DNA of 32,000 bases from Methanothermus fervidus DSM 2088 (GTDB taxonomy: Archaea; Methanobacteriota; Methanobacteria; DSM-2088; Methanothermaceae). The notes beneath the pieces are model-generated. The model ran no database searches, was not told the origin of the DNA, and was given only the letters and a program-made list of their open reading frames with translations. The translations under genes were made by a program, and so were the position numbers. Of this stretch, positions 4,201-27,858 are shown piece after piece. The first letter of the stretch is position 1, and each line of letters begins with the position of its first letter. The stretch is from the NCBI GenBank assembly GCA_000166095.1, contig CP002278.1, forward strand, positions 1,200,001 through 1,232,000, in the 5' to 3' direction.

Positions 4201-5872
4201 AGCTGCATGGGAGTCTGCAAAAAAAATTGTTGATGACATGTTAAGAAAATATTATAAAGAACATGGAAAATTCCCAGAATTAGTTGGAATGGTAATGTGG
4301 GGTACAGAATTACTAAGAACTGAAGCACTTGCAATAGCTGAATTTATGTATCTTTTAGGTGTAAAACCAGATTGGGCACCAAATGGAGACGTTAAAGGTG
4401 TAGTTTTAATGGATCCATCAGAATTTGCAATTGAAATTGATGGTAAAAAAATAATTAGGCCAAGAATAGATGTTTTTACAACTGCTGTGACATATAATCA
4501 AGCATGGATTGATCTAATGAATAAAGCTGTTGAACTAGCTAGCGAAGCTAAAGATGTTGAAAATTATGTTGCTAAACATTATAAAGAATGTAATTCTCTT
4601 GATAGAGTTTTCGGTTTAAGAGGTTATGTATTAGAAGGAACTGGTGTTTGTGATTTGGTTCCACAAACAGGAAAATGGAACACAACTAAAGAGTTGGCAG
4701 ATGTTTATCTTTCTAGAGTTTCTTATGCATGGAAATCTGTTAATGGCGTAATGCAAATGAAACAAAATAAGGACGTATTCCAATATCTATTAAAGAAAAT
4801 GGATATCGCAACACAAACAATCGATAGTACTTGGAGACTTTTTGACACAGACGACTATTATGACTGGTATGGTGGATTAATATTGGCATCAAAGACTTTA
4901 GGTGGAAATCCAGAAACAATGCTCCAAGACATTAGGAATTTAAAATTTACTCAAATAAGATCTCTAAAGGAAGAAGTAGAATTAGAAATAAGATCACAGG
5001 TGTTAAATCCAAAATACATGGAATCATTGCTTAAAACTCCTAGTGGTTGGATGGAATATGCAAAAAGATATGAATACACGGTTGGTATTCATGTAACAAC
5101 AAATTCAGTAAGCAATGAATTATGGAACAAACTAGGAGAAAACTTAATAATGAATTTAAACCCTAAAACAAATTATGAAGCATTTGCAACACAATCAATG
5201 ATTGCATGGGTCCTAGAAATGGAAAGAAGGTCATTAGCATCTCTAAGACCTGAATTAAAAGTTGCCCTTGCTAATAAATATATAACTTTAGCCGTTAAAT
5301 ATGGACCAGTATGTTGTCACCATACATGTGCAAATATAAACTTTAATCTTTGGGTAATTCAAACATCTAACTTACCTCTATCATACCTCCAAAAATTCGC
5401 AGCCGCATTTGCAGAAACTACTGGAGTTAAGTTATCAATTCCAGGAGCTCCAACAACACCACAACCTTCAGTCCCTGGAATATCAATAACAGTCCCTGGA
5501 ATTCCAACATCCATTCCAGGAGCACCATCACAACTAGGAGCTCCAACTGCATTAGGAAGAGTAGGAATTGGAACTGCAGCAACAAGGGGAGTTTCACCAG
5601 GAATTTCAGGTCCTTCAGGTAGAGTTGGCGGTGAAATTGGTACAAGAGGAGCAGCTCAAGCTGCTGGAGCTGCAAGTAAATCCTCATCAGAATCAGGTGC
5701 TACAGGTAAAGCAGGAATTACAGGTGCTGCAGCAGGAAAAGCATATGAGATTACACCAGTGTCTAAAGGAATTGGAAGTCCATCATCAGTGCCATTCGCA
5801 GGAATAATCGGAGTTATAATATTGATTGCATTAATAGCAGTAGGATATCTATTGAGAAGGCCTAAATATTAG
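1271..5872 (+). CDS. CobN/BchH-family chelatase-like protein, predicted extracellular: signal peptide + CarboxypepD_reg-like beta-sandwich + CobN core + P/G/A/S-rich linker + C-terminal TM anchor
   Basis: 1533-aa ORF. CobN-family signature stretches are present: MIHLGTHGTLEWLPGR, SDVLPTGRNFYPYD, and ALAIAEFMYLLGVKP with IRPRIDVF. The N-terminus MKAKSFLIILTLIIAFIINISPVLG/IEV has the n-h-c organisation of a signal peptide. Residues about 26-112 (TTTDNNGKYLITA...YKPAIFTV) look like a carboxypeptidase-regulatory-like domain. The C-terminus is ...SSVPFAGIIGVIILIALIAVGYLLRRPKY. Confidence 0.85.
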   Translation: MKAKSFLIILTLIIAFIINISPVLGIEVKGSVKEIYNETSDTYVTLENAIPVKDANITLIKDNVVLNKTTTDNNGKYLITANATPPLILKIEYSTYKPAIFTVNKDCEINHVFIPDIVIIGCPKPFGVELSKRLMFYDPWMPGAEKDCWILEHANFAFLYMQTPGTGQKDFWIQYLGNSPANKTGHIAAYAGMGEERYFNIIGGSKNSLENTYLASYYVLASGNATKINYDRMVKYISYLLNETTYNPIEHDEVPIFAGGGTAGSWGLYHPDLGTRTVLGYNLTQPSPKQIKQWIEENPGLAISGNLKWLAKLNMYLVSSGFAKLCEDFENWYNNNKPNLKGPFIVVVSYWPGGQKDPTIDMLIRELEKRGRPAFDLYQIETQPPASKLLELMVKGINGTGFIKRGISAVISLVSWSLNYDNLPEGAVKEYLNMNIPIIKGMELWTNNGLENPLGTQFELTWQMGLPYREGVFGPTPVSYRDERSGRYIPIETGIKKIVDNAIKWAKLREIPNKDKRIAIIIYNYPPGKDNFVASYLDVFKSIHDLLTRLKELGYSVSEIPTPEELYNIVAEGGNKGTWAQPALEKYVDKNWKRLMENNQLIPLNKYLEWFNQLPDPMKRNITGKWGEPPGNIMTVTRNGTKYIVIPGVKLGNIFIAIQPSRGWEEVKDYHDPYLPPHHQYVAFYKWLEENFDAMIHLGTHGTLEWLPGRTTGVIDSDYPFQLTCLPNIYPYIVSNPGEGLVAKDRSFAVIIDHMTPAMVESGLYGNLSELHDLIHRYNAALEAGASQLLPELEKEIIEKAASLGFKKEGNFTDWLRELHIQLHEIENDVIPLGLHSLGKILEGDELVEELYTIASSRSDLMENIKRMMYPEIKESYYDIMYDPKYEDKVEKIKEKAKEWIRNIINGNIPPEIKPDDLKFINETLTKIRANEEWQNLLNALSGGYVPPGLAGDPARSDVLPTGRNFYPYDVKKMPTKAAWESAKKIVDDMLRKYYKEHGKFPELVGMVMWGTELLRTEALAIAEFMYLLGVKPDWAPNGDVKGVVLMDPSEFAIEIDGKKIIRPRIDVFTTAVTYNQAWIDLMNKAVELASEAKDVENYVAKHYKECNSLDRVFGLRGYVLEGTGVCDLVPQTGKWNTTKELADVYLSRVSYAWKSVNGVMQMKQNKDVFQYLLKKMDIATQTIDSTWRLFDTDDYYDWYGGLILASKTLGGNPETMLQDIRNLKFTQIRSLKEEVELEIRSQVLNPKYMESLLKTPSGWMEYAKRYEYTVGIHVTTNSVSNELWNKLGENLIMNLNPKTNYEAFATQSMIAWVLEMERRSLASLRPELKVALANKYITLAVKYGPVCCHHTCANINFNLWVIQTSNLPLSYLQKFAAAFAETTGVKLSIPGAPTTPQPSVPGISITVPGIPTSIPGAPSQLGAPTALGRVGIGTAATRGVSPGISGPSGRVGGEIGTRGAAQAAGAASKSSSESGATGKAGITGAAAGKAYEITPVSKGIGSPSSVPFAGIIGVIILIALIAVGYLLRRPKY
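5430..5790 (+). repeat. Low-complexity, GC-enriched P/G/A/S/T-rich linker-coding region with imperfect short repeats (xPGxP units)
   Basis: The DNA repeats attccaggagc(t/a)cca and gtccctggaat. The protein reads IPGAPTTPQPSVPGISITVPGIPTSIPGAPSQLGAPTALG..., followed by G/A/S/T-rich sequence. Lack of stop codons here creates shadow ORFs in other frames (5427..5687 -, 5568..5807 +). Confidence 0.6.
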
Positions 5873-5901
5873 TTCATTTTTATTTTTATCTCCCTATTAA
5901 T

Positions 5902-6306
5902 TCAAAAAGTTCCAAAAATTTTGTGATAATAATTTACAGCTTTCATTGGACAGGTTATCACACAACATCCACATCCAACACATTTTTCATCGTCTATTTC
6001 AACTGTCCAGTCATCTTTTATACTTATAGCTCCAACAGGACAAATTGAAACACATGCTCCACAATCAATACACTTTTCTTTGTCTTTCCTCACAACGTCC
6101 TTTGCAATCTCAACAATTATTCCCCTATTTTTTAGGTATTCTATACTTTCCTTTTTTCTTTTACCTAATATTTCAGCTAAAATTTTACCGCCACTTGATG
6201 TAATATGGGCATGCAAAATATTAAAATCTATGTCATATTTTTTTATTGCGTCGGATATAACAGGTTTTTTTATTATTTCTTTTGAAAAATATAACCATAC
6301 TCTCAT
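5902..6306 (-). CDS. NIL domain + 2x[4Fe-4S] ferredoxin-domain protein, partner of the COG1900 homocysteine-biosynthesis enzyme (MA1822/MJ0099 type)
   Basis: The N-terminal half ([33 protein letters not shown]) is NIL-like. Two ferredoxin cysteine motifs are present: [12 protein letters not shown] and [12 protein letters not shown]. The gene lies immediately downstream of the COG1900 gene, overlapping it by 4 nt. Confidence 0.8.
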
Positions 6307-7835
6307 TTCTTTTCCCTACCAATTATACGTGATATATCTTCAGCAGTAACTATTCCTATTACTCTATTATCTTTATCGACAACTGGAAGTCCTGAAATGT
6401 TATATTTATCCATACGACGTGCAGCGACATCTATTGGCTCATTTTCTTTAGCAGTTATTACCCTTTTTGTCATGATTTCTTCTAATTTTTTAGTACCTTC
6501 AGCAACAGCATTTGCTATATCCCATGATGTAACTATTCCCCTAAGTTTATTATTTTTGTCAACTATTGGAACATGATTTATATTATTTTCCACAATTTTC
6601 TTTGCCACACTTTCCACACTTTCTGAAATACTAGCTACAATGGCAGGCTTGGTCTCAACATCTTTAACCAGTATTAATGGTTTTTTAATTTTCAGTGGTT
6701 TTAATTCCTTAGGTTTTTTAGGTAGAGGTTTTACATATTCTGACAGTGTAAATTCTCCTTTTTCTATCAATTTTTTTAATTCTTCAGCAACTTCCATCGC
6801 CATCTTATAAGATGATAAAGGTGATGTTGGTACTTCCTTATCATCTATAATTACTTTTCCAGATTTTAATTCCTCATAATTTGTTTCAGCAACTACAGGT
6901 CTATCTCTACTTGGCACGCCATAGTCAATTATCTTACACTTTATATCTTTATCACTTACTCCAGTTCTTAAGGCAATTTTTTCATTTAAGACAGGAATTG
7001 GTATTCCAACTCCTAAATAAATTGTTGGTCCATACTTATGTATAGTAGCTCCTCTTACAAACTTAGGATCCATGTCTTTCATGTCCGCTTTTAGCATTAA
7101 TGTTCCTGCAGGAGAAACTGGGATATCTTTGTGTCTTTCTACGCCAACTCTATGTTGTGTTCCCTCTCCAACAACATATCCTTGAGCACCTGCAAGAAAT
7201 ACTTTTGTTCCTATTCCTATACATTCAAAATATGGATCATTGAGCAGTGGACTTAATTCACCTGCGCTTGAGTAGGTTACATTGCCAAAATTGGGAAGTA
7301 AGGTACCCATATAGGTATATAGTGTTTCATTGCTAGAATTAGTTGCGGCAGCATAATTTTGGTAACAATTTCTTGGGTTTACCATTATTGCTTGGTTTAT
7401 TTCAGATAAAGAAATTGCAGTTTCTATTTTTTTTAATGGATAACAATCTGTTCCAAAACCTTCTGCCACAAGTTCAACTTCTTTGCCTTTTATAAGGTCC
7501 TCTATTACGTGGCCTCCACCATAATCAAATTTTTTTTCAGGATCAATATTAGGTTGTGCAGCACCTATATAAATATCTACAGCAGCTATACCAGCGTAAG
7601 CCTCTACTCCATTCAAATAAGCCCTTTTAATTTTTATTGGAGGTTCTGCATGGCCTAAATTTAAAAATGCTCCTGAAGAACACATTGCACCAAAAGTTCC
7701 AGTAGTAACTACATCAATTTCTTTAGCAGCTTTTTTTGCGCCATCATCTCTTACAATTTCAACCATTTCAGATGCTGTAACTACTACTGCATCTCCATTT
7801 TTTATTTTTTGGTTTATTTCTTCTAATGATTTCAA
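6303..7835 (-). CDS. L-aspartate-semialdehyde sulfurtransferase / homocysteine biosynthesis protein (COG1900, DUF39) with two C-terminal CBS domains (MJ0100/MA1821 type)
   Basis: 510 aa. [37 protein letters not shown] and [22 protein letters not shown] match my memory of the MJ0100 family. The C-terminal [18 protein letters not shown] and [19 protein letters not shown] form a CBS pair. Confidence 0.85.
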
Positions 7836-19324: not shown

Positions 19325-19330
19325 TAAAAA
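19323..19330 (-). terminator. Oligo-T tract (TTTTTATT on the minus strand) directly after the tRNA 3' end
   Basis: The plus strand reads aataaaaa at 19323-19330, giving T5 immediately after the discriminator base. It overlaps the stop codon of the GalU-like gene on the other strand. Confidence 0.4.
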
Positions 19331-19404
19331 TCCCGGCTGCCGGATTTGAACCGGCGACCCGCGGATCTACAGTCCGCCGCTCTACCAGACTGAGCTAAGC
19401 CGGG
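19331..19404 (-). tRNA. tRNA-Tyr (anticodon GTA), 74 nt, no intron, CCA not encoded
   Basis: The minus strand folds as a cloverleaf. Acceptor CCCGGCT/AGCCGGG; D arm GCTC-AGTCTGGTA-GAGC; anticodon arm GCGGA-CTGTAGA-TCCGC (anticodon GTA); variable GGGTC; T arm GCCGG-TTCAAAT-CCGGC; discriminator A. The C1:G72 pair is the archaeal tRNA-Tyr identity pair. Confidence 0.9.
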
Positions 19405-19425
19405 ATATCTTTACTCACAAGATAT

Positions 19426-19449
19426 TATAAAAAAGTTCTTATATATAAA
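19426..19449 (-). promoter_or_regulatory. Candidate TATA elements upstream of tRNA-Tyr
   Basis: The minus strand reads TTTATATAT (19441-19449) and TTTTTTATAA (19426-19435). The latter ends about 20 nt upstream of the tRNA 5' end, appropriate for an archaeal TATA box. A T6 run here could also terminate the upstream operon. Confidence 0.35.
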
Positions 19450-19458
19450 TTTTTCTGT

Positions 19459-20649
19459 TCATGTAATCAATGCATAAATCAATGACAATATTATTGCTAT
19501 AACACCTAATTCCCATCTTCCAATTTGCCATCCAATAAAAGTCATTAAAAAGACAAAAATAAAAATCAAAATTCCTTCTCCCTTCCTATTCAATGCAAAA
19601 TTTATTAAAGTTCTAGTGAAATCTGAAGGAATAAAATAAGCATAAGTACCATTTGCAAGATTAAAAACTACTGTAGAGCTTGGATGCCAAAACTTTACAT
19701 CATCAGATAAATATGCATTTTCACCAGCTTCTTTCCTAGTTTTACCTACTCCAGCCCTTATTTTAACATCGTTTACTTGACTTTCCCAAATTGCTTCTAA
19801 TATTGCTTGTAATGCTAAATCTTTTGTTGGCATACTTGCAACCAAATCATCGCCACCTTTACGATAACCTTCTATTTTTCCTTCTCGTTCTTCGATTCTT
19901 TTCTTTATTTTTTCCATCACTAAACTTAAAAAGTCTCTACCATATTTCTCAATAAATTTTGTGGAATTTATTACATCAAGAAAAAGATAATTGCCATGAG
20001 TAGAATATGTTTCACCAATTTTTGAAATTTTTGATGGAAAGAGAAGTGCAAATTCCCCACCAAATTTTGTAAAAGCCACTCCTGGTATTTCACCGACTTC
20101 ATTAGTTAACTTTATAGCTCTTTCTACAGCTGCTGCAGCGGTCATTCCTACGGCAGCCCGCACATTTAAATTTTTCTCACCACCCAATGCTATAAGCTTT
20201 ATTGCTATTTTTATTGCTTCATTTTTTGATATTAATCTTGCTAATATTTCATTAGGACCTTTTTCTACAATTTCTCCTCCTTCATTTTTGATTGTATCAA
20301 TAAATTCATTCACATCAGCTTTTTCTGGAAGTTCAACATATAGATATCTATCACTGCCAACAATTATATCACTTAAAAGTGCACGTTCATTTATATCTTT
20401 CTCAGGTTTTTTTAATTCAACAAATCTACCATTTCGAGGCAAAGCAAAATTTAGTTCTTCAACTAAACTTTCAAATATGCTATTAGAATCAATTTTTGCC
20501 TTTTTAAGTTCTATCAACATAGTTTTTGTATCGTTCATCATTTTAACATATTTTTCTTCGTCTTCTGTAGTTGGACGATAATCAGTCCCAATACTAATAA
20601 TCCTTTTTCCAATAAAAAAACTTAAAATAAAGCGTAGGATCCTACCCAT
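19459..20649 (-). CDS. Membrane-anchored protein with two tandem GGDEF/Cas10-palm-like (nucleotidyl cyclase fold) modules, the second with a GGDD motif; two C-terminal TM helices
   Basis: Residues 219-303 (GNYLFLDVINSTKFIEKYGRDF...GYRKGGDDLVASMP...VKIRAGVGKT) align by eye with the GGDEF-domain order LDIDhFKxiND..G...R.GGEEF..lmP...isiGv. Residues 100-170 (RYLYVEL...EKGPNEILARL...NVRAAVGMT) repeat the same order without the acidic motif. GGT GGC GAT GAT was verified at 19846-19857. The C-terminal GILIFIFVFLMTFIGWQIG and LGVIAIILSLIYALIT are hydrophobic helices. The CDS call is strong; the functional call is inference. Confidence 0.55.
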   Translation of the reverse strand: MGRILRFILSFFIGKRIISIGTDYRPTTEDEEKYVKMMNDTKTMLIELKKAKIDSNSIFESLVEELNFALPRNGRFVELKKPEKDINERALLSDIIVGSDRYLYVELPEKADVNEFIDTIKNEGGEIVEKGPNEILARLISKNEAIKIAIKLIALGGEKNLNVRAAVGMTAAAAVERAIKLTNEVGEIPGVAFTKFGGEFALLFPSKISKIGETYSTHGNYLFLDVINSTKFIEKYGRDFLSLVMEKIKKRIEEREGKIEGYRKGGDDLVASMPTKDLALQAILEAIWESQVNDVKIRAGVGKTRKEAGENAYLSDDVKFWHPSSTVVFNLANGTYAYFIPSDFTRTLINFALNRKGEGILIFIFVFLMTFIGWQIGRWELGVIAIILSLIYALIT

Positions 20650-21669
20650 CTACTTTTGTCCTCCTTTTTCCAATGTAACCTCAAATTCACCAGGATTTTC
20701 AAGTAATACACTAGGTCTCACAGCAACTATTGGAAATCTCCAACTACCAATTCTTGCGGCAATTGTACTTGCTATATTCCTGGAATTCCTTTTTACCAAA
20801 GCATAATCATGATTATTAACTGTTATATTGACATTGTATGGTGATTCTTCCATTACATCTTCTGAAGGCAACACATTTAATTCAAAATGGTTTTTCCGCA
20901 TGAAAATATCATTTCTAACAGCTACAAGTGGACTATATTCTAATTCTAAATTATCTCTGACAGTTACAGCTATGTTGCCAGCATATTTAACAACTTTTTT
21001 ATAATCTTGTGGATTAACAAGAACAAATATTATATAGTTTCCTTCTTCAATATTTTCAACCATCTCTAGAACATTTTTTAAGACAGGAATTTTCATGAAC
21101 ACTTCTTCAACTTTTGACTCTAATCCTTCCTCATAAACCTTAATTCTACTTATAGCTTCTTTAGCTATTGCTATGCCACTAAGCTTTTTCCCATGTCTTA
21201 CATTATAGTAATCAAAACCTTTGTCTTTAAATTTGTTTAAAGCATCTAAAGTGATTTCTTTTATTATGTCTTTGACCTTCCTTACTTTTGGAATCTTTCC
21301 AATTACTATTTTATTATTTTCAAATGTGTAGGGAACTCTTCTACTATCAATATTTTTAAATTCATCTCTAAACTCTCTAAAATTGTCATTTGACAATATT
21401 TTTGCATCTTCTTCTTCTGCCAACTTTAAAATATAATGATCTGCATTTGTACCTGCAGGTACTTCCTTAATTATCCCCTTTTTTATGTATTCCTTATATT
21501 TCTCTTCATCATCAATCTTATGTTTCAAAGAAGCGTCAGCAACGACTATCGGTTTAAAACCAAGTTTTTTTACAGCCTTTATAGCTTCGATAATTCTTTT
21601 CATTATCGCCTTATTCTGATGGTGGGCAATATTTGATGCATCTATAATCATTTTCAATGGATCACCCAT
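20650..21669 (-). CDS. Zc3h12a-like NYN/PIN-type ribonuclease domain protein with an uncharacterised ~190-aa C-terminal region
   Basis: The N-terminal region reads KMIIDASNIAH...GFKPIVVADASLKHKID...GTNADHYILKLAEEEDAKILSNDNFREF. This matches the acidic-residue pattern of the RNase_Zc3h12a/NYN fold (D at strand 1, DxxxD-like, SNDxxR). I recognise no motif in the rest. Confidence 0.65.
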   Translation of the reverse strand: MGDPLKMIIDASNIAHHQNKAIMKRIIEAIKAVKKLGFKPIVVADASLKHKIDDEEKYKEYIKKGIIKEVPAGTNADHYILKLAEEEDAKILSNDNFREFRDEFKNIDSRRVPYTFENNKIVIGKIPKVRKVKDIIKEITLDALNKFKDKGFDYYNVRHGKKLSGIAIAKEAISRIKVYEEGLESKVEEVFMKIPVLKNVLEMVENIEEGNYIIFVLVNPQDYKKVVKYAGNIAVTVRDNLELEYSPLVAVRNDIFMRKNHFELNVLPSEDVMEESPYNVNITVNNHDYALVKRNSRNIASTIAARIGSWRFPIVAVRPSVLLENPGEFEVTLEKGGQK

Positions 21670-22405
21670 TTTTTCTTTTATATTTACCTAATATTTTCAT
21701 TTTTCCTTCTACTTCACATAATTTTACTTTTATTTCTTTCTCATTCACCAAATACACATTATAACTATTTGGATTTTTTGCTCTAAGTGATGGAGATGAA
21801 ACTGTACCTGCAGTTGCAAAAACACAACCTTCTAAATTCCATGAATATGGTACATGTCTATGTCCACAAACAACAAGATCCACATCGTATTTAACTAAAG
21901 ATTCTAGAATATCACCAGCGTCAAGAAGTACATTTCTTTCTCGTCCTGTTTTTGGAACGGGGATGATATGATGATGCAAGGCTACAATTTTGAATTTATT
22001 TTTTGCTTTTTTCAATTCTTTTTCAAGCCATTTTTGCTGTTCTCTTCCTATCTTTCCACAATCTAAATCAGGTTCACTACTGTCAAGTCCAATAACAACA
22101 AACTTTTTATTCTTATTTTTAAGAACACCTGATCTTGGACCAATAACTTCTTCAAATACTTCATAACCTACGTGTCTAGCATCATGATTTCCTGGTACAG
22201 TTATAGTAGGTATAATCTCTGAAATTTCATCTAAATATTTTTTTGCTTCTATAAATTCCTGATAATAACCATTGTTTGTTATATCTCCACTTACAATAAC
22301 TACATCAGGGCGGATGTTTTTAACCTGGTTCAGAGCTTTTTTTAATAATTTTTCCTTAAATTTGAATTCACCCACATGAAAATCTGAAAGGTGGGCAATT
22401 ATCAA
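21662..22405 (-). CDS. Calcineurin-like metallophosphoesterase, CpdA/Icc-like (class III phosphodiesterase-type motif set)
   Basis: The motifs are in canonical order: HLSDFH, VVIVSGDITNNG, VPGNHD, ALHHH, VVCGHRHVP. It uses a TTG start abutting the NAC stop (TAATTG). The substrate cannot be inferred from sequence. Confidence 0.75.
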   Translation of the reverse strand: MIIAHLSDFHVGEFKFKEKLLKKALNQVKNIRPDVVIVSGDITNNGYYQEFIEAKKYLDEISEIIPTITVPGNHDARHVGYEVFEEVIGPRSGVLKNKNKKFVVIGLDSSEPDLDCGKIGREQQKWLEKELKKAKNKFKIVALHHHIIPVPKTGRERNVLLDAGDILESLVKYDVDLVVCGHRHVPYSWNLEGCVFATAGTVSSPSLRAKNPNSYNVYLVNEKEIKVKLCEVEGKMKILGKYKRKNG

Positions 22406-22747
22406 TTAACTCAGCCTCATAATTGCTTCTGCGATGTCACCATTACTTTCTTTTAAGGCTTTTTCAGCCTCATCCCTACTAACTCCTGTTTGTTCCATAA
22501 CAAGCTTAATATCTTCTTCAGGTATTTTTTCCTCAACTTTTCTTTCTTCAACTTTACCAGTCACTTGATATGTCTTTTGACCCATTAGATCCATCAAAGT
22601 TACACTGGGATTCTTTATAACAAGCTCTTTGTCATTCATTTTAATAATAACTTCATTAACACCTTTTAATTCTTCCATTTTCATTCCCATTTGCTTCATA
22701 ACTTTTTGCATACGTCTCAACTGTCTTGGATCCATACCAGGTATCAT
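22406..22747 (-). CDS. nac: Nascent polypeptide-associated complex protein (archaeal NAC alpha with C-terminal UBA domain)
   Basis: The NAC domain includes KMEELKGVNEVIIKMNDKELVIKNPSVTLMDLMGQKTYQV. The UBA-like tail is EEDIKLVMEQTGVSRDEAEKALKESNGDIAEAIMRL. Confidence 0.9.
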   Translation of the reverse strand: MIPGMDPRQLRRMQKVMKQMGMKMEELKGVNEVIIKMNDKELVIKNPSVTLMDLMGQKTYQVTGKVEERKVEEKIPEEDIKLVMEQTGVSRDEAEKALKESNGDIAEAIMRLS

Positions 22748-24708
22748 TCACTCCACTCCTTTCTATTTTTTACAGCCACTCCTCTCTCAAACTCCATCAT
22801 TTCATAGCTAGATAATACAGCTTTACCAAATGCGATTAATTCATCATCCTTATTAACAACTAAAACTTCGTCATTTGCTCTTATCTTTTTATCACAATCT
22901 ATAATAAATTTGGCAAATACATTTCTACCAGCTTTTACGAATGGTTCTGCTTCCTCATTAACAACGACTCTATTTAATGGATATTCTCTATTTTCATGTA
23001 ATTTTTTTGCTCCATCCCAAGTTAGTATTATAAACCCATCTGGTGGTCGTATAGTAGCTAAAAGAACATCGTCTTCATAAATATACCTTATTCTCCCAGT
23101 TTTTCTACTTCTCAACACTCTAATATTTCCATTAAATAAGGCTTCTCCACTTCCTTCACCAAATTGATAATCAGCCATTAATTTTACTATTTCTAGATCT
23201 TCAATTTTTGTTTCTATTTCTATATCATCTCTGTATTTATTTGATAAACCAAGATCAAATCTTTCATTTACAAGTTCATTGACAAGAACTTCTTCATATT
23301 CTTCAAACAAATCCTCAATTTTTTTAATTAAAAATTCTTTCATCTCTAAATCATAATTTTTTGGAACTTCGCATTGAGCAAGAGGATATAATTCATCTAC
23401 GCCTAGAGGAATTATACAAAATGGAACATCCACAACAAAAAATTGGGATTCTTCTATAGGTTTACTAGAATTTCCTATACGATAGAATCCTTTAATTTTC
23501 TTAGGAATATTTCTATTGTATGGTTTACCATAAGAAGGTAACAATATTGCCCTACTCCTTTTTGGTAATTGTTTAATTTTTTTAAAATGACGATATATTT
23601 CCACACGTCTTAAACTTTCAGGGCCTAAGTAAAAGAATGCTGAAGGTTTTGTTACAGGATCATATTTTTCTATAAATTTTTTATATTTAAGAAGTTCTCT
23701 ATAAGCATCTAAAAGTGTTGGATGAGATCTACATCTTTTTTCAACAAGTTCCATCAATGATCCATCATATATTGCCTGCCTAACTCTTCTCATCTCACTA
23801 AAACTTACATAAAGATTATGTTGAGATATCAATTTATATCTTTCATCTTTTTCCATTCTCCTCAATTCCTCAGGCGTATATTCTAGACATATTGGACATG
23901 TGCATGGCATTTCTTGTAAATCTTGGAGTTTATAAGTTCCATGTGGACTTAAAAATCTATCATCTTGTGCATATAACATATAAGCGGCTGAATCAAATAA
24001 ATCACAGCCCATAGCTACCATCAATGCAAATAACATTGGATGCCCAGCACCCATAAGATGTATAGGACGAGAACGTGGTAAATGTTGAACTGAAGACATG
24101 ACTATATTTACTATTGTTCTGTAATCATAAGATTCAAGTAGTGGAACAACAGCGCCTATTGGATGCACATCAAAAGAATATTTACTTAATTCCTTTGCAC
24201 AACGGGCTCTAAGGTCAGGATATGTTGATCCTTGTACTACAGCATTAAGTAGCATATCTTTCCTATAATCTAAAGATTCTATAGCTCTTTTAATTGTTAT
24301 GTCTAATTCTTCTTCTGCTCTTTTTCTACTAACATATGGTGGTGTGGGTATATCTAATGAAGTTCCAATATCTGAACCTATTTTTTCTTGGAACTCAATT
24401 ATTTCTTTATTACTAACATCAATATCTCCATATTTAGAAAGTTGGAAAGAACCTGAATCAGTCATTACAACTCCATCAAAATCTATTAATTTATGTACAC
24501 CTTTTTTAATTGCTTCTTCTCTAAGTTCTTCATCTCTGTAGATTATATATGCGTTAGTAATGACTATCTCTTTGTTAAATTTTTTTATGTCAAATTCTTG
24601 TTTTTTTGGATGAATAACTGGCATTAAGGTAGGGGTTTGAACTTTTTTATTTTTCACTGTAAATATGCCAATTCTTCCAAGTCCATCTTTTCTCTTTATT
24701 TCAAACAT
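22744..24708 (-). CDS. tgtA: Archaeosine tRNA-guanine transglycosylase (ArcTGT) with C-terminal PUA domain
   Basis: MFEIKRKDGLGRIGIFTV...VQTPTLMPVIHP, VMTDSGSFQ, the zinc site CTCPICLEY and the long C-terminal extension are typical of the archaeal enzyme (654 aa). Confidence 0.9.
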   Translation of the reverse strand: MFEIKRKDGLGRIGIFTVKNKKVQTPTLMPVIHPKKQEFDIKKFNKEIVITNAYIIYRDEELREEAIKKGVHKLIDFDGVVMTDSGSFQLSKYGDIDVSNKEIIEFQEKIGSDIGTSLDIPTPPYVSRKRAEEELDITIKRAIESLDYRKDMLLNAVVQGSTYPDLRARCAKELSKYSFDVHPIGAVVPLLESYDYRTIVNIVMSSVQHLPRSRPIHLMGAGHPMLFALMVAMGCDLFDSAAYMLYAQDDRFLSPHGTYKLQDLQEMPCTCPICLEYTPEELRRMEKDERYKLISQHNLYVSFSEMRRVRQAIYDGSLMELVEKRCRSHPTLLDAYRELLKYKKFIEKYDPVTKPSAFFYLGPESLRRVEIYRHFKKIKQLPKRSRAILLPSYGKPYNRNIPKKIKGFYRIGNSSKPIEESQFFVVDVPFCIIPLGVDELYPLAQCEVPKNYDLEMKEFLIKKIEDLFEEYEEVLVNELVNERFDLGLSNKYRDDIEIETKIEDLEIVKLMADYQFGEGSGEALFNGNIRVLRSRKTGRIRYIYEDDVLLATIRPPDGFIILTWDGAKKLHENREYPLNRVVVNEEAEPFVKAGRNVFAKFIIDCDKKIRANDEVLVVNKDDELIAFGKAVLSSYEMMEFERGVAVKNRKEWSE

Positions 24709-24719
24709 ATAAATGTCAC

Positions 24720-25853
24720 CTATTGAATGGTTTCTTTAATTTTTTTCAAGCGCTTACGCATCATCAATATTCTTTCCCTAGAATTCTTTGGACGTGGTTC
24801 ATTACAACCACAGATACATTTATCAAACTGTGGACATACAATATACTTGGCCTCATAACTATTTATCTCAATCCCAAATTTCTGTGCATTTTTAATAGCC
24901 CTTGTATTTGCCTCAGCTTTCCCTAAATACAATGGAGTTCTAGCTGAGGAGGATAAATATTCCTTATGTCTTGCCTTCTTTCTTTCAATTTTTCTTCTCT
25001 TTAAAATTTTTTCTGCAGGATCATTTAAATTTGGATCTCTAAATGGTATTCCCACATCACTTAAGGCTATCATTCTTTCATCATCAACATTAAGTTGTTT
25101 TTTTATGAGGGAAGGATTTGGGGATGCTATAGTCCCTCCACGTTTTCTACCAAATATAGGACCTTCCCCTATATAAAATCCCACTTCAATCATCCCAGAT
25201 CTTACTGGAGCAGCAGATGTATAAGTTGTTAAAATACTATTTTTATTCATAACCCTAATAACTTCATTGAAAAATTCAACAGTGTATAATTCTGGAGATC
25301 TTAAAGGACTATAAGCATCTAAAAATACCACATCATAATAATCAGATTTTAAATTTTTTATAACATCTCTTGCATCATTACAGAATACATTAATTTTTAT
25401 GTTTTTTCTCTTGTCTTTTGTTTTGTTGTCAATTTTTTTCAATACTCCCTCTTCATAAAGTTTCTTTTTATATACAGTTTTAATAAGCTTGTGAGAATCT
25501 ATGGGACTTGGTATTAACGTTGCTAACAATAATACTTCTTTTGATATTTCAATCATGTCTATTTTTAAATTATTTTTCTTTTTATGAATTAATGCAGCAG
25601 AATTATAACCCAATCCTGAACATATGTCCAAAACTTTGAGTTTTTCTTTTTTTAATACTTCAATAGGTTTAACAAATTTTTCAAATGATTCTGTAATTGC
25701 ACCATGGATTGTATGCATCGTTTCATTAAAATTAGATTTAACTGTATATGAACCATCTTTAGTCTTAATTAAATATTTCATTAATTTACCTTTGACGTTG
25801 TAACCTTCTAGATACTTCTTCAGTAATTTGGAGACTCTACTGTCTAATTTCAT
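24720..25853 (-). CDS. MnmC2/DUF752-like SAM-dependent (tRNA U34 aminomethyl-type) methyltransferase with a basic, Cys-rich C-terminal extension
   Basis: LIKTKDGSYTVKSNFNETMHTIHGAITESFEKFV resembles the start of the MnmC methyltransferase domain. VLDICSGLGYNSAALI is SAM motif I, and VFLDAYSP is present. The extension (about residues 265-377) is Lys/Arg-rich and contains CPQFDKCICGC. The specific substrate is inference. Confidence 0.6.
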   Translation of the reverse strand: MKLDSRVSKLLKKYLEGYNVKGKLMKYLIKTKDGSYTVKSNFNETMHTIHGAITESFEKFVKPIEVLKKEKLKVLDICSGLGYNSAALIHKKKNNLKIDMIEISKEVLLLATLIPSPIDSHKLIKTVYKKKLYEEGVLKKIDNKTKDKRKNIKINVFCNDARDVIKNLKSDYYDVVFLDAYSPLRSPELYTVEFFNEVIRVMNKNSILTTYTSAAPVRSGMIEVGFYIGEGPIFGRKRGGTIASPNPSLIKKQLNVDDERMIALSDVGIPFRDPNLNDPAEKILKRRKIERKKARHKEYLSSSARTPLYLGKAEANTRAIKNAQKFGIEINSYEAKYIVCPQFDKCICGCNEPRPKNSRERILMMRKRLKKIKETIQ

Positions 25854-27102: not shown

Positions 27103-27858
27103 TCAATTAATGAATTTTACATATTTAAGAAGATCAATTGCATTTTTAACCTCAGATTCTAAATTTAAAGATAGATATGCTTTTTTACCCAATGAAAAAC
27201 TTGAGGATAATATCATTTGTTTTTTGCCAATTAATTCAACCCCATTGACTGGTGTATGACCTACAACCATTGCATTACATCCAACTTTCTCTAGAAATCT
27301 ATCTATATCAGAAAGTGAGTAATCACCATATCTATTCCAAATTAATTCATATAAGATGGGATCATCATAATCTTTAACTTTCATAATATCTTCAATACTT
27401 TCTATATATCTAGAAGGACCTGCATGGGAAATAAATACTTTGTTAGAGGTCCTAACAGCTAAATGAAATTTCTTAAAAAATGTTTTAAACTCATCTAATA
27501 TTTCTTTCCATCCATCTCCAAATTTACTTTTCAATAATCTTTCAAACATTATTGTGAGATTTATACCACCTTTGTAGATGGGAATTCCTGTAATCACAGA
27601 CCATTCATGATTACCAAGTAGAAGATATATATTTTTTTCGCTCTTAAGTAAGTCTCGAACTTTGTATATAATTTCGACAGATCCATCTTCCTTTAAATCC
27701 ATTGCATGGATTAGATCACCTGTAAATACAAAATATTCGTGCTCACCACTTTCCCAAATTTTAATATATTTATTAAAATCTTTTAAATTTCCATGAATAT
27801 CAGTAACTACTAAAAGCTTACCATTATTTGATAATTCAATTAGAGGATCTTTCATCAA
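27103..27858 (-). CDS. PPP-family metallophosphatase (Ser/Thr phosphatase / ApaH-like)
   Basis: LLVVTDIHGN, FVFTGDLIH, LLLGNHEW and MVVGHTP are present in canonical order. Confidence 0.75.
   Translation of the reverse strand: MMKDPLIELSNNGKLLVVTDIHGNLKDFNKYIKIWESGEHEYFVFTGDLIHAMDLKEDGSVEIIYKVRDLLKSEKNIYLLLGNHEWSVITGIPIYKGGINLTIMFERLLKSKFGDGWKEILDEFKTFFKKFHLAVRTSNKVFISHAGPSRYIESIEDIMKVKDYDDPILYELIWNRYGDYSLSDIDRFLEKVGCNAMVVGHTPVNGVELIGKKQMILSSSFSLGKKAYLSLNLESEVKNAIDLLKYVKFIN

Follow-up and report, generated by a model that had tools for sequence, protein, structure and literature searches.

A putative class III cyclase-like protein and its conserved partner domain, fused to an NYN ribonuclease, in pseudomurein-walled methanogens

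Cyclic AMP (cAMP) has been detected in archaea including Methanothermobacter thermautotrophicus, and no archaeal protein that makes, degrades or senses cAMP has been characterized, the archaeal "class IV cyclases" having turned out to be triphosphatases (2023 review, PMC10249747). A recent search for genes specific to pseudomurein-containing archaea, carried out by pangenome analysis (Lupo et al., mSystems 2025, PMC11915815), described a "cluster D" composed of OG0001213, a Zc3h12a-like NYN protein, and OG0001214, a "Nucleotide cyclase" with more than one transmembrane segment. Here we analyzed this pair in Methanothermus fervidus DSM 2088, in a 32,000-nucleotide (nt) stretch of contig CP002278.1 (positions 1,200,001 to 1,232,000 of the forward strand; hereafter the window), where three consecutive minus-strand genes in the open reading frame (ORF) list encode a 247-amino-acid (aa) metallophosphoesterase with a TTG start (22405..21662), a 339-aa NYN ribonuclease (RNase) with a C-terminal domain (21669..20650) and a predicted membrane-anchored, tandem cyclase-like protein of 396 aa (20649..19459). 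Cluster D is the same pair, as its groups hold the Methanopyrus proteins WP_088335152.1 and WP_088335150.1, which we recovered as P0304 and P0248; the pair was therefore already in the literature, while the initial annotation of this locus was aware of no characterized system of this composition. In that survey the cyclase label derives from the Methanopyrus protein alone and no function is assigned, and it describes neither the internal duplications nor which domain of the partner is conserved, nor does it cover how well the catalytic residues are kept or the neighboring phosphoesterase gene.

The described enzymes closest to the 396-aa protein are the class III cyclases (Rv1900c, Ma1120, mammalian adenylyl cyclase (AC) and soluble adenylyl cyclase (sAC)), with which it has in common the palm fold, profile similarity, both metal-binding aspartates and a basic residue at the purine position. 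Mammalian AC and sAC resemble it further in having two cyclase-type halves per chain, one of them degenerate. Membrane attachment is another point in common with the class. It differs from class III cyclases in that its halves are just ~110-125 aa long, with no recognizable dimerization arm and no identifiable Asn/Arg pair, and in scoring below every curated model, carrying an extra conserved N-terminal region and occurring in two archaeal orders only; its anchor is a short C-terminal hairpin, compared with the 6-transmembrane bundle of class III membrane cyclases. Our reading of the locus, which we consider plausible yet short of probable, is that its products form a housekeeping pathway in which a cyclic nucleotide controls an RNase and the phosphoesterase possibly degrades the signal, and that this pathway is confined to pseudomurein methanogens.

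Based on homology and predicted structure, the 396-aa protein appears to be an internally duplicated class III cyclase-like protein, with a degenerate N-terminal half, a catalytic-type C-terminal half and a membrane hairpin. The N-terminal palm/cyclase-homology half (aa 98-205; 20035..20358, minus strand, as are all features below unless stated) was recognized through its hhalign similarity to the C-terminal copy (probability 97.5%, E 8.6e-12; 96% and 1.5e-9 in a repeat run) and has no PDB sequence match of its own, and it carries E106 in place of D225 and T133-E134 in place of D267-D268. The C-terminal half (aa 218-342; 19624..19998), delimited by profile comparison with PDB sequences, retains D225 at the first metal-binding Asp position (codon 19977..19975) and a GGDD motif that carries D267 (aa 265-268; 19857..19846). 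Since the metal-binding Asp pair is kept in the C-terminal copy alone, only that copy looks catalytic. The hairpin (aa ~356-395; 19465..19584) is predicted both by hydrophobicity, with just two hydrophobic segments in the protein, both lying within aa ~356-396, and by the helices at 356-376 and 380-395 of an AlphaFold2 (AF2) model; one to two transmembrane segments were likewise predicted for the orthologues in the cluster D survey (PMC11915815). Ahead of the two halves lies a conserved alpha/beta region (aa 16-97; 20359..20604) with many invariant columns and beta-alpha repeats predicted by AF2, which is related to neither palm half by hhalign and matches nothing. This region is among the best-conserved parts of the protein and is a candidate docking or regulatory module. 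A third palm copy was sought in it and in the C-terminal domain of the NYN protein, and neither of them is one.

Structure and profile searches converged on the same family. The AF2 model of the 396-aa protein, with a predicted local distance difference test (pLDDT) of 85 and a predicted template modeling score (pTM) of 0.75, placed class III cyclases at the top of a Foldseek search of the PDB (probability 0.98-1.00, E 9e-6 to 1e-3), in the order AC9 C1-C2 domain (8.7e-6), sAC, OaPAC, Ma1120 and Rv1900c, with per-domain template modeling (TM) scores relative to the target of 0.5-0.57. Further matches were GTP cyclohydrolase III (4e-4) and Csm1 (6e-4), the latter weaker than the cyclases. A profile of aa 213-350 that included the Methanopyrus sequence matched class III cyclases only among 177,635 PDB sequences (Rv1900c 5.8e-5; Ma1120 2e-3 to 5e-3), and its alignment with Rv1900c sets D225 on the Asp of FTDIVGST and D267 on the Asp of GD, with R/K263 at the purine-specifying Lys/Asn342 position. 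These results bear out the palm/cyclase fold proposed in the initial annotation and, among the families named there for comparison, place the protein closest to class III cyclases and not within Cas10/mCpol. In the alignment the GGDD hairpin coincides with the "AGDG" found in class III cyclases, so that GGDD alone cannot tell these families apart. An mCpol identity was rejected, with the model NF033576 reaching 13.5 bits against a cutoff of 40 (E 0.087) and matching 1 of 27 members, which we take as chance; so was a GGDEF identity, with no PF00990 match and no GGDEF structure among the PDB profile matches. Hits to haemagglutinin HA2 from a single-sequence phmmer search of the PDB were spurious.

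The family is narrowly distributed. About 500 homologues of the 396-aa protein were found, all from Methanobacteriales, ~400 aa long and annotated as hypothetical, and a relative is encoded by 243 species genomes in a GTDB set of 185,579 species. Within that set the M. fervidus protein finds no genome match closer than 55% identity, a 99% match being found only in Logan read assemblies. A hidden Markov model search of 1.84 billion cluster representatives returned one cluster at 50%, many fragments and a single distant full-length relative, a 452-aa protein from Methanopyrus, so that the family is confined to Methanobacteriales and Methanopyrus. The M. kandleri member is annotated as "Predicted diverged member of adenylate cyclase 3 family". 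Three metagenomic sequences (P0271, P0258 and P0281) join pieces of this family to unrelated sequence, for example a vWA-like N-terminus that leads into the final beta-strands and the transmembrane hairpin; these are probably assembly chimeras or pseudogenes and could be real domain recombinants.

Several observations weigh against the cyclic-nucleotide reading, and the first group of them concerns the enzyme. The whole 396-aa protein has no match in Pfam, including PF00211 Guanylate_cyc, at E <=0.1; 13 isolated C-terminal halves have none at E <=10; and no NCBIfam cyclase model is reached. Global Foldseek TM scores are low (0.22-0.26, with 0.22 against both C1-C2 and sAC), so that the mutual arrangement of the halves is not established as a catalytic head-to-tail dimer. 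The cyclase half is also minimal, at ~125 aa, and its dimerization arm is absent or too diverged to align, so that neither the second specificity residue nor the Asn/Arg transition-state pair can be placed; the presence of the basic residue and the metal-binding Asp in the same half is equally compatible with a homodimer of C-terminal halves and with an intramolecular site. Galperin's 2005 census, moreover, described archaeal AC3-like ORFs as highly diverged and "probably inactive". One could accordingly regard the cyclase-like protein as a dead relic or pseudo-enzyme whose adjacency to the NYN gene carries no signaling meaning, as the census, the failure to reach a curated cyclase model and the missing class III arm would all suggest. 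We consider this improbable in view of residue conservation. Across 80 related loci from GTDB genomes of Methanobacteriaceae, which underlie all conservation and synteny counts below and in which the cyclase has ~50% overall identity, D225, G265, G266, D267, D268, K276, R298, R305 and E310 are invariant (80/80), and position 263 is always basic (R in 77 loci, K in 3). Even the Methanopyrus homologue, at 32% identity, keeps D225, S229, GGDD, K276, R305 and E310, with K at position 298, and the degenerate N-terminal half shows relaxed catalytic positions within the very same protein. The acidic pair that the initial annotation expected in orthologues is thus retained throughout, and the conservation across 80 loci speaks against the "probably inactive" label of the 2005 census.

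The second gene of the trio encodes a genuine NYN (Zc3h12a-like PIN) ribonuclease domain (aa 7-130; 21280..21651), as had been proposed for it. The Pfam model PF11977 matches at 2.4e-23 (83 bits against a cutoff of 23), and all 313 homologues, ~340 aa long, carry the same domain. Among the 21 homologues that were scanned, every one matches PF11977 and five match Pfam PRORP weakly. The AF2 model is confident for aa 1-130 only, with a pLDDT of ~90 over the NYN domain, and Foldseek matched this part to ZC3H12B/C, MCPIP1 and KHNYN (E ~1e-7, TM 0.6-0.7, 26-31% identity), with PRORP also appearing. Across the loci that cover them, D10, N13, D45, S93, N94, D95 and D102 are invariant, D77 is Asp in 73 of 74 loci, and 71 loci have Glu and 4 have Asp at position 99. 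We take the conserved residues to correspond to MCPIP1 D141, N144, D226, S242, D244 and D248, with the first Asp of the eukaryotic NYN "DD" pair (as in MCPIP1) presumably replaced by Ala in the window protein. The fold and catalytic motifs are those of Zc3h12a/Regnase-1 and KHNYN; the protein differs from these in having neither a CCCH zinc finger nor a KH domain, and instead bears a duplicated new domain at its C-terminus.

This C-terminal partner domain (aa 131-339; 20653..21279), which the initial annotation had pointed out as an extra, unassigned domain and which Pfam indeed leaves unmatched, appears from sequence comparison to be a new domain built around two repeat units of ~57 aa. Unit 1 (aa 211-267; 20869..21039) contains the motifs AGNIAVTV and PLVAVRND, and unit 2 (aa 278-334; 20668..20838) the motifs SRNIASTIAAR and FPIVAVRPS; hhalign relates the two with a probability of 96% (E 3.2e-9, 31% identity over 52 columns). 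The domain is unrelated to the cyclase. Searches of Pfam and of PDB sequences gave no repeatable match, and an assignment to DUF2286 (E 0.0046) was rejected as it did not recur in 21 other members. A profile search with the partner domain found 283 proteins, and all 120 of those listed are Methanobacteriales NYN proteins.

What singles this domain out is its position beside the cyclase. Directly upstream of the Methanopyrus cyclase homologue, and abutting it, is a gene for a 238-aa protein that matches aa 133-331 of the NYN protein (31% identity, E 2e-31) and lacks the NYN domain altogether. The neighbors of the Methanopyrus pair are also different, comprising aspartate kinase, ThiC and an RNA ligase, away from TgtA, NAC and the phosphoesterase. 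Since the pair abuts there while the other flanks differ and no NYN domain is present, the C-terminal domain is singled out as the partner of the cyclase. The evolutionarily stable pair consists of the cyclase and the C-terminal partner domain, adjacent across two orders, and the RNase is an addition of the Methanobacteriales. The two members have the same narrow phyletic range (for the partner, among the matches listed), the cluster D survey recovered them independently as pseudomurein-specific, and the pair belongs to the core genome of the pseudomurein-walled methanogens (Methanobacteriales and Methanopyrales). In Methanopyrus sp. KOL6 (L081, 9356-11732), ThiC overlaps the cyclase homologue by 4 nt downstream, and the RNA ligase (PF09414) lies two genes on, which may be a coincidence or a hint of an RNA-related role.

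Within the Methanobacteriaceae, the NYN and cyclase genes are adjacent in 78 of 80 loci, with a median gap of 6 nt that never exceeds 200 nt. The order methyltransferase-TgtA-NAC-phosphoesterase-NYN-396-aa protein recurs across these loci, with the NYN gene present in 78 of them, the phosphoesterase in 71, NAC in 68, TgtA in 66 and the methyltransferase in 55; loci that miss a gene are truncated, with the exception of L080, to which we return below. The phosphoesterase and NYN genes have a median gap of -6 nt, exceeding 100 nt in eight loci and reaching a maximum of 579 nt in Methanobrevibacter. The co-localization predicted for the trio is accordingly found in part, in that the NYN and palm proteins are neighbors nearly everywhere and the phosphoesterase lies upstream of NYN in 71 loci, while at the Methanopyrus locus the phosphoesterase is absent. 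The trio does not stand as the discrete module that had been envisaged, because the whole six-gene block is syntenic and, in Methanopyrus, the palm protein stays together with just the C-terminal part of the NYN protein.

In the pathway that we favor, the C-terminal hairpin would anchor the 396-aa protein on the cytoplasmic side of the membrane, where the catalytic-type half of the protein would turn a nucleoside triphosphate (NTP), most plausibly ATP, into a cyclic nucleotide. The partner domain would act as the receptor for this nucleotide, or would dock on the cyclase, and would thereby switch the fused NYN RNase, in housekeeping or stress-related control of RNA stability as opposed to antiviral suicide. 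The Icc/CpdA-type phosphoesterase might then clear the signal, a link that derives from synteny within one family only. What the analysis establishes are folds and homologies, internal duplications, conserved catalytic residues, the phyletic range and the adjacency of the genes across two orders; we infer the cyclase activity and its product, ligand binding by the partner domain, control of the RNase and any part played by the phosphoesterase.

Three further points count on the negative side of this proposal. First, AF2 pLDDT falls below 50 over the partner domain, which makes Foldseek matches beyond the NYN domain meaningless, and no nucleotide-binding fold is recognizable there. Second, L080 (Methanobrevibacter sp., metagenome-assembled genome Zx50_bin4, 4697-7194) has a cyclase gene with no NYN gene in the 6 kb upstream, where one finds a small GTPase-like ORF of 204 aa and another ORF of 125 aa ahead of the cyclase gene. 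Third, a stable protein complex would explain the adjacency equally. In such a complex, formed at the membrane with no diffusible messenger, the partner domain would bind the cyclase-like protein as a docking or regulatory subunit, for instance at its N-terminal region, and tether the NYN RNase to the membrane, with the palm sensing bound NTP or working as a nucleotidyltransferase whose target is the partner or RNA. The abutting or overlapping genes in two orders suggest the stoichiometric co-production that a complex would call for, the partner domain has no known ligand-binding fold, the cyclase carries a strongly conserved extra N-terminal region, and the Methanopyrus partner without an effector domain is odd for a pure sensor-effector design. 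The invariance of both metal-binding aspartates and of GGDD, however, points to catalysis beyond binding, and we regard this alternative as rather unlikely.

The cyclic-nucleotide reading must also be set against the gene block as a whole. At 21669..21662, read directly from the sequence, ATGGGTGA overlaps the TGA of the phosphoesterase with the NYN start by 8 nt (the NYN start might alternatively be Met7 at 21651, which would give an 11-nt gap instead of the overlap), and at 20652..20647 the sequence TAGATG places the ATG of the 396-aa gene directly against the NYN stop, with a Shine-Dalgarno GGAGG (20664..20660) 10 nt ahead of that start. The same packing continues upstream, where NAC, the archaeosine tRNA-guanine transglycosylase TgtA and an MnmC2-like tRNA methyltransferase (22406-25853) belong to the same run as the trio: the phosphoesterase TTG directly follows the TAA of NAC, TgtA and NAC overlap through ATGA, and the methyltransferase ends 11 nt upstream of TgtA, giving a spacer-less run of six genes in the window. 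Among same-strand neighbor pairs in the window, the gap is <=0 in 12 of 22 and <=4 nt in 15 of 22. Spacer-less junctions being this common, the tight joining of the trio is not special.

This run of genes lends itself to an explanation in which the NYN protein processes or degrades tRNA or rRNA and is expressed together with TgtA, the MnmC2-like methyltransferase and NAC, the phosphoesterase acts on RNA ends or in general housekeeping, and the palm protein has an unrelated role or is an RNA-linked nucleotidyltransferase. The six packed genes, syntenic in 55-71 of 80 loci, are what such an RNA-maturation operon would look like, the relatives of the NYN domain include protein-only RNase P (PRORP in Foldseek, and the weak Pfam PRORP matches in 5 of 21 homologues), and Methanopyrus encodes an RNA ligase two genes downstream of its cyclase. 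Within a single family, however, synteny is mostly inherited, and six-gene conservation of this kind conveys little functional information by itself; gaps of 0.3-2.7 kb in Methanobrevibacter interrupt the block and spare the NYN-cyclase junction; and the Methanopyrus pair lies apart from TgtA, NAC and the phosphoesterase, with a partner that has no nuclease domain. Collectively, these considerations lead us to judge this explanation quite unlikely.

The gene order also ends abruptly on its downstream side. A tRNA-Tyr (GTA) lies on the same strand at 19330-19405, 53 nt downstream of the cyclase gene, and the spacer at 19406-19458 holds a TATA-like TTTATATATA and a T-run. We rejected the tRNA as part of the gene unit, as none is found at that position in 22 related loci, and its absence there means that synteny breaks at this point in the lineage of the window.

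The phosphoesterase is the least certain member of the proposed pathway. It matches Pfam Metallophos at 5e-23 and contains the motifs D8-x-H10, G40-D41, G72-N73-H74-D75, H144 and G181-H182-x-H184, which are conserved and invariant across loci. With the catalytic positions of all three proteins invariant or nearly so, conservation argues against dead enzymes. Its closest PDB relatives are GpdQ (1.6e-11) and Rv0805 (4e-7), and both these and the model matches point to a superfamily relative in the Icc/CpdA/Rv0805/GpdQ branch, in agreement with the CpdA/Icc type named in the initial annotation. Rv0805 and CpdA, among its nearest characterized relatives, are phosphodiesterases of cyclic nucleotides. 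All five motifs are common to these enzymes and the window protein, yet its scores fall far under the equivalog cutoffs, with the CpdA model PRK11148 giving 59.6 bits against a cutoff of 225 and the CpdA and SpdA models matching partially. Further evidence against a degrader within the pathway comes from Methanopyrus, where no metallophosphoesterase occurs within 8 kb of the pair, and in the portion of the supplementary tables available from the pseudomurein-specific gene survey (PMC11915815) the terms "Phosphoesterase" and "Metallophos" are absent. A role as signal degrader is functionally plausible, without comparative support, and membership of the protein in the system is uncertain. A second calcineurin-like metallophosphoesterase ORF (251 aa; 27103-27858; Pfam Metallophos 1e-17) lies ~5 kb upstream of the cluster.

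The combination of a nucleotide synthase, a phosphodiesterase and a nuclease that carries an additional domain is also the logic of several antiviral systems, and the initial annotation had compared the trio with type III CRISPR, CBASS and mCpol-type systems. Panoptes and mCpol are documented (PMC12657218, PMC12657230). The 396-aa protein resembles mCpol and Cas10 in having GGDD on a beta-hairpin and a minimal domain (the mCpol model spans 118 positions), beside a partner that may be a signal-controlled effector, and it differs in that the window pair has no CARF, 2TM or HEPN partner and lies in no defense island. The likeness to Pycsar consists of a class III-type cyclase gene beside a putative effector gene; set against it are the absence of a PADLOC match, a partner without a CAP-type domain binding cyclic nucleoside monophosphates, and a locus that is core, vertical and housekeeping.

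If the locus were an abortive-infection system comparable to type III CRISPR, CBASS, Pycsar or Panoptes, infection would make the cyclase signal, the RNase would kill and the phosphoesterase would reset the system, and besides the shared logic one could cite in its favor the Cas10-like GGDD and the weak matches of the phosphoesterase to generic defense-associated phosphoesterase models. We consider this very unlikely. The cyclase gene is found in 243 species genomes and keeps a fixed chromosomal position among housekeeping genes in 80 loci. PADLOC returned 0 families for it, including Pycsar and CBASS cyclase models, and only weak generic matches for the NYN protein and the phosphoesterase; the mCpol cutoff, as noted, was not reached. 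A search of 50,697 phage records gave no homologue of either the cyclase or the partner domain, and a search of 72,556 plasmid records gave none for the cyclase. The window contains no cas, CARF, SAVED or HEPN genes, just as the initial annotation had remarked, and related loci show no cas, CARF, HEPN or 2TM association. The window, whose G+C content is 31%, otherwise carries housekeeping genes, including CobN, homocysteine synthesis, TldD/PmbA, a NOG1-type GTPase, ArgJ and ArgB, together with an isocitrate/isopropylmalate-type dehydrogenase, a GalU-like enzyme, a radical SAM protein, an AIR-synthase-like protein and an HD protein. The locus is core and vertically inherited, at a fixed position among housekeeping genes, and is not a defense island; the antiviral comparison made for the trio fits it poorly.

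Returning to the cyclic-nucleotide reading, the locus offers a concrete candidate synthase, a possible receptor-effector and a possible degrader for archaeal cyclic-nucleotide signaling, in a lineage that includes M. thermautotrophicus, which can be grown in mass culture, and for which methanogen genetic tools are under development. In its fullest form the proposal would make this the first archaeal cyclic-nucleotide pathway whose three components can all be identified, in which a class III-derived synthase would explain the cAMP measured in Methanothermobacter in 1986, a new duplicated receptor would gate an NYN RNase and an Icc-type enzyme would degrade the signal, all confined to pseudomurein-walled methanogens; taken whole, we consider this doubtful. 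If the enzyme is inactive, or the pair merely a structural complex, the result would be a modest improvement in annotation. If the partner domain binds nucleotides, it would represent a novel type of sensor or adaptor. Restriction to two pseudomurein orders raises a possible link to envelope physiology, of relevance to methane-mitigation targets in rumen Methanobrevibacter, and if the proposal is true, the three-part pathway might link RNA turnover in these methanogens to the condition of their membrane or cell envelope.

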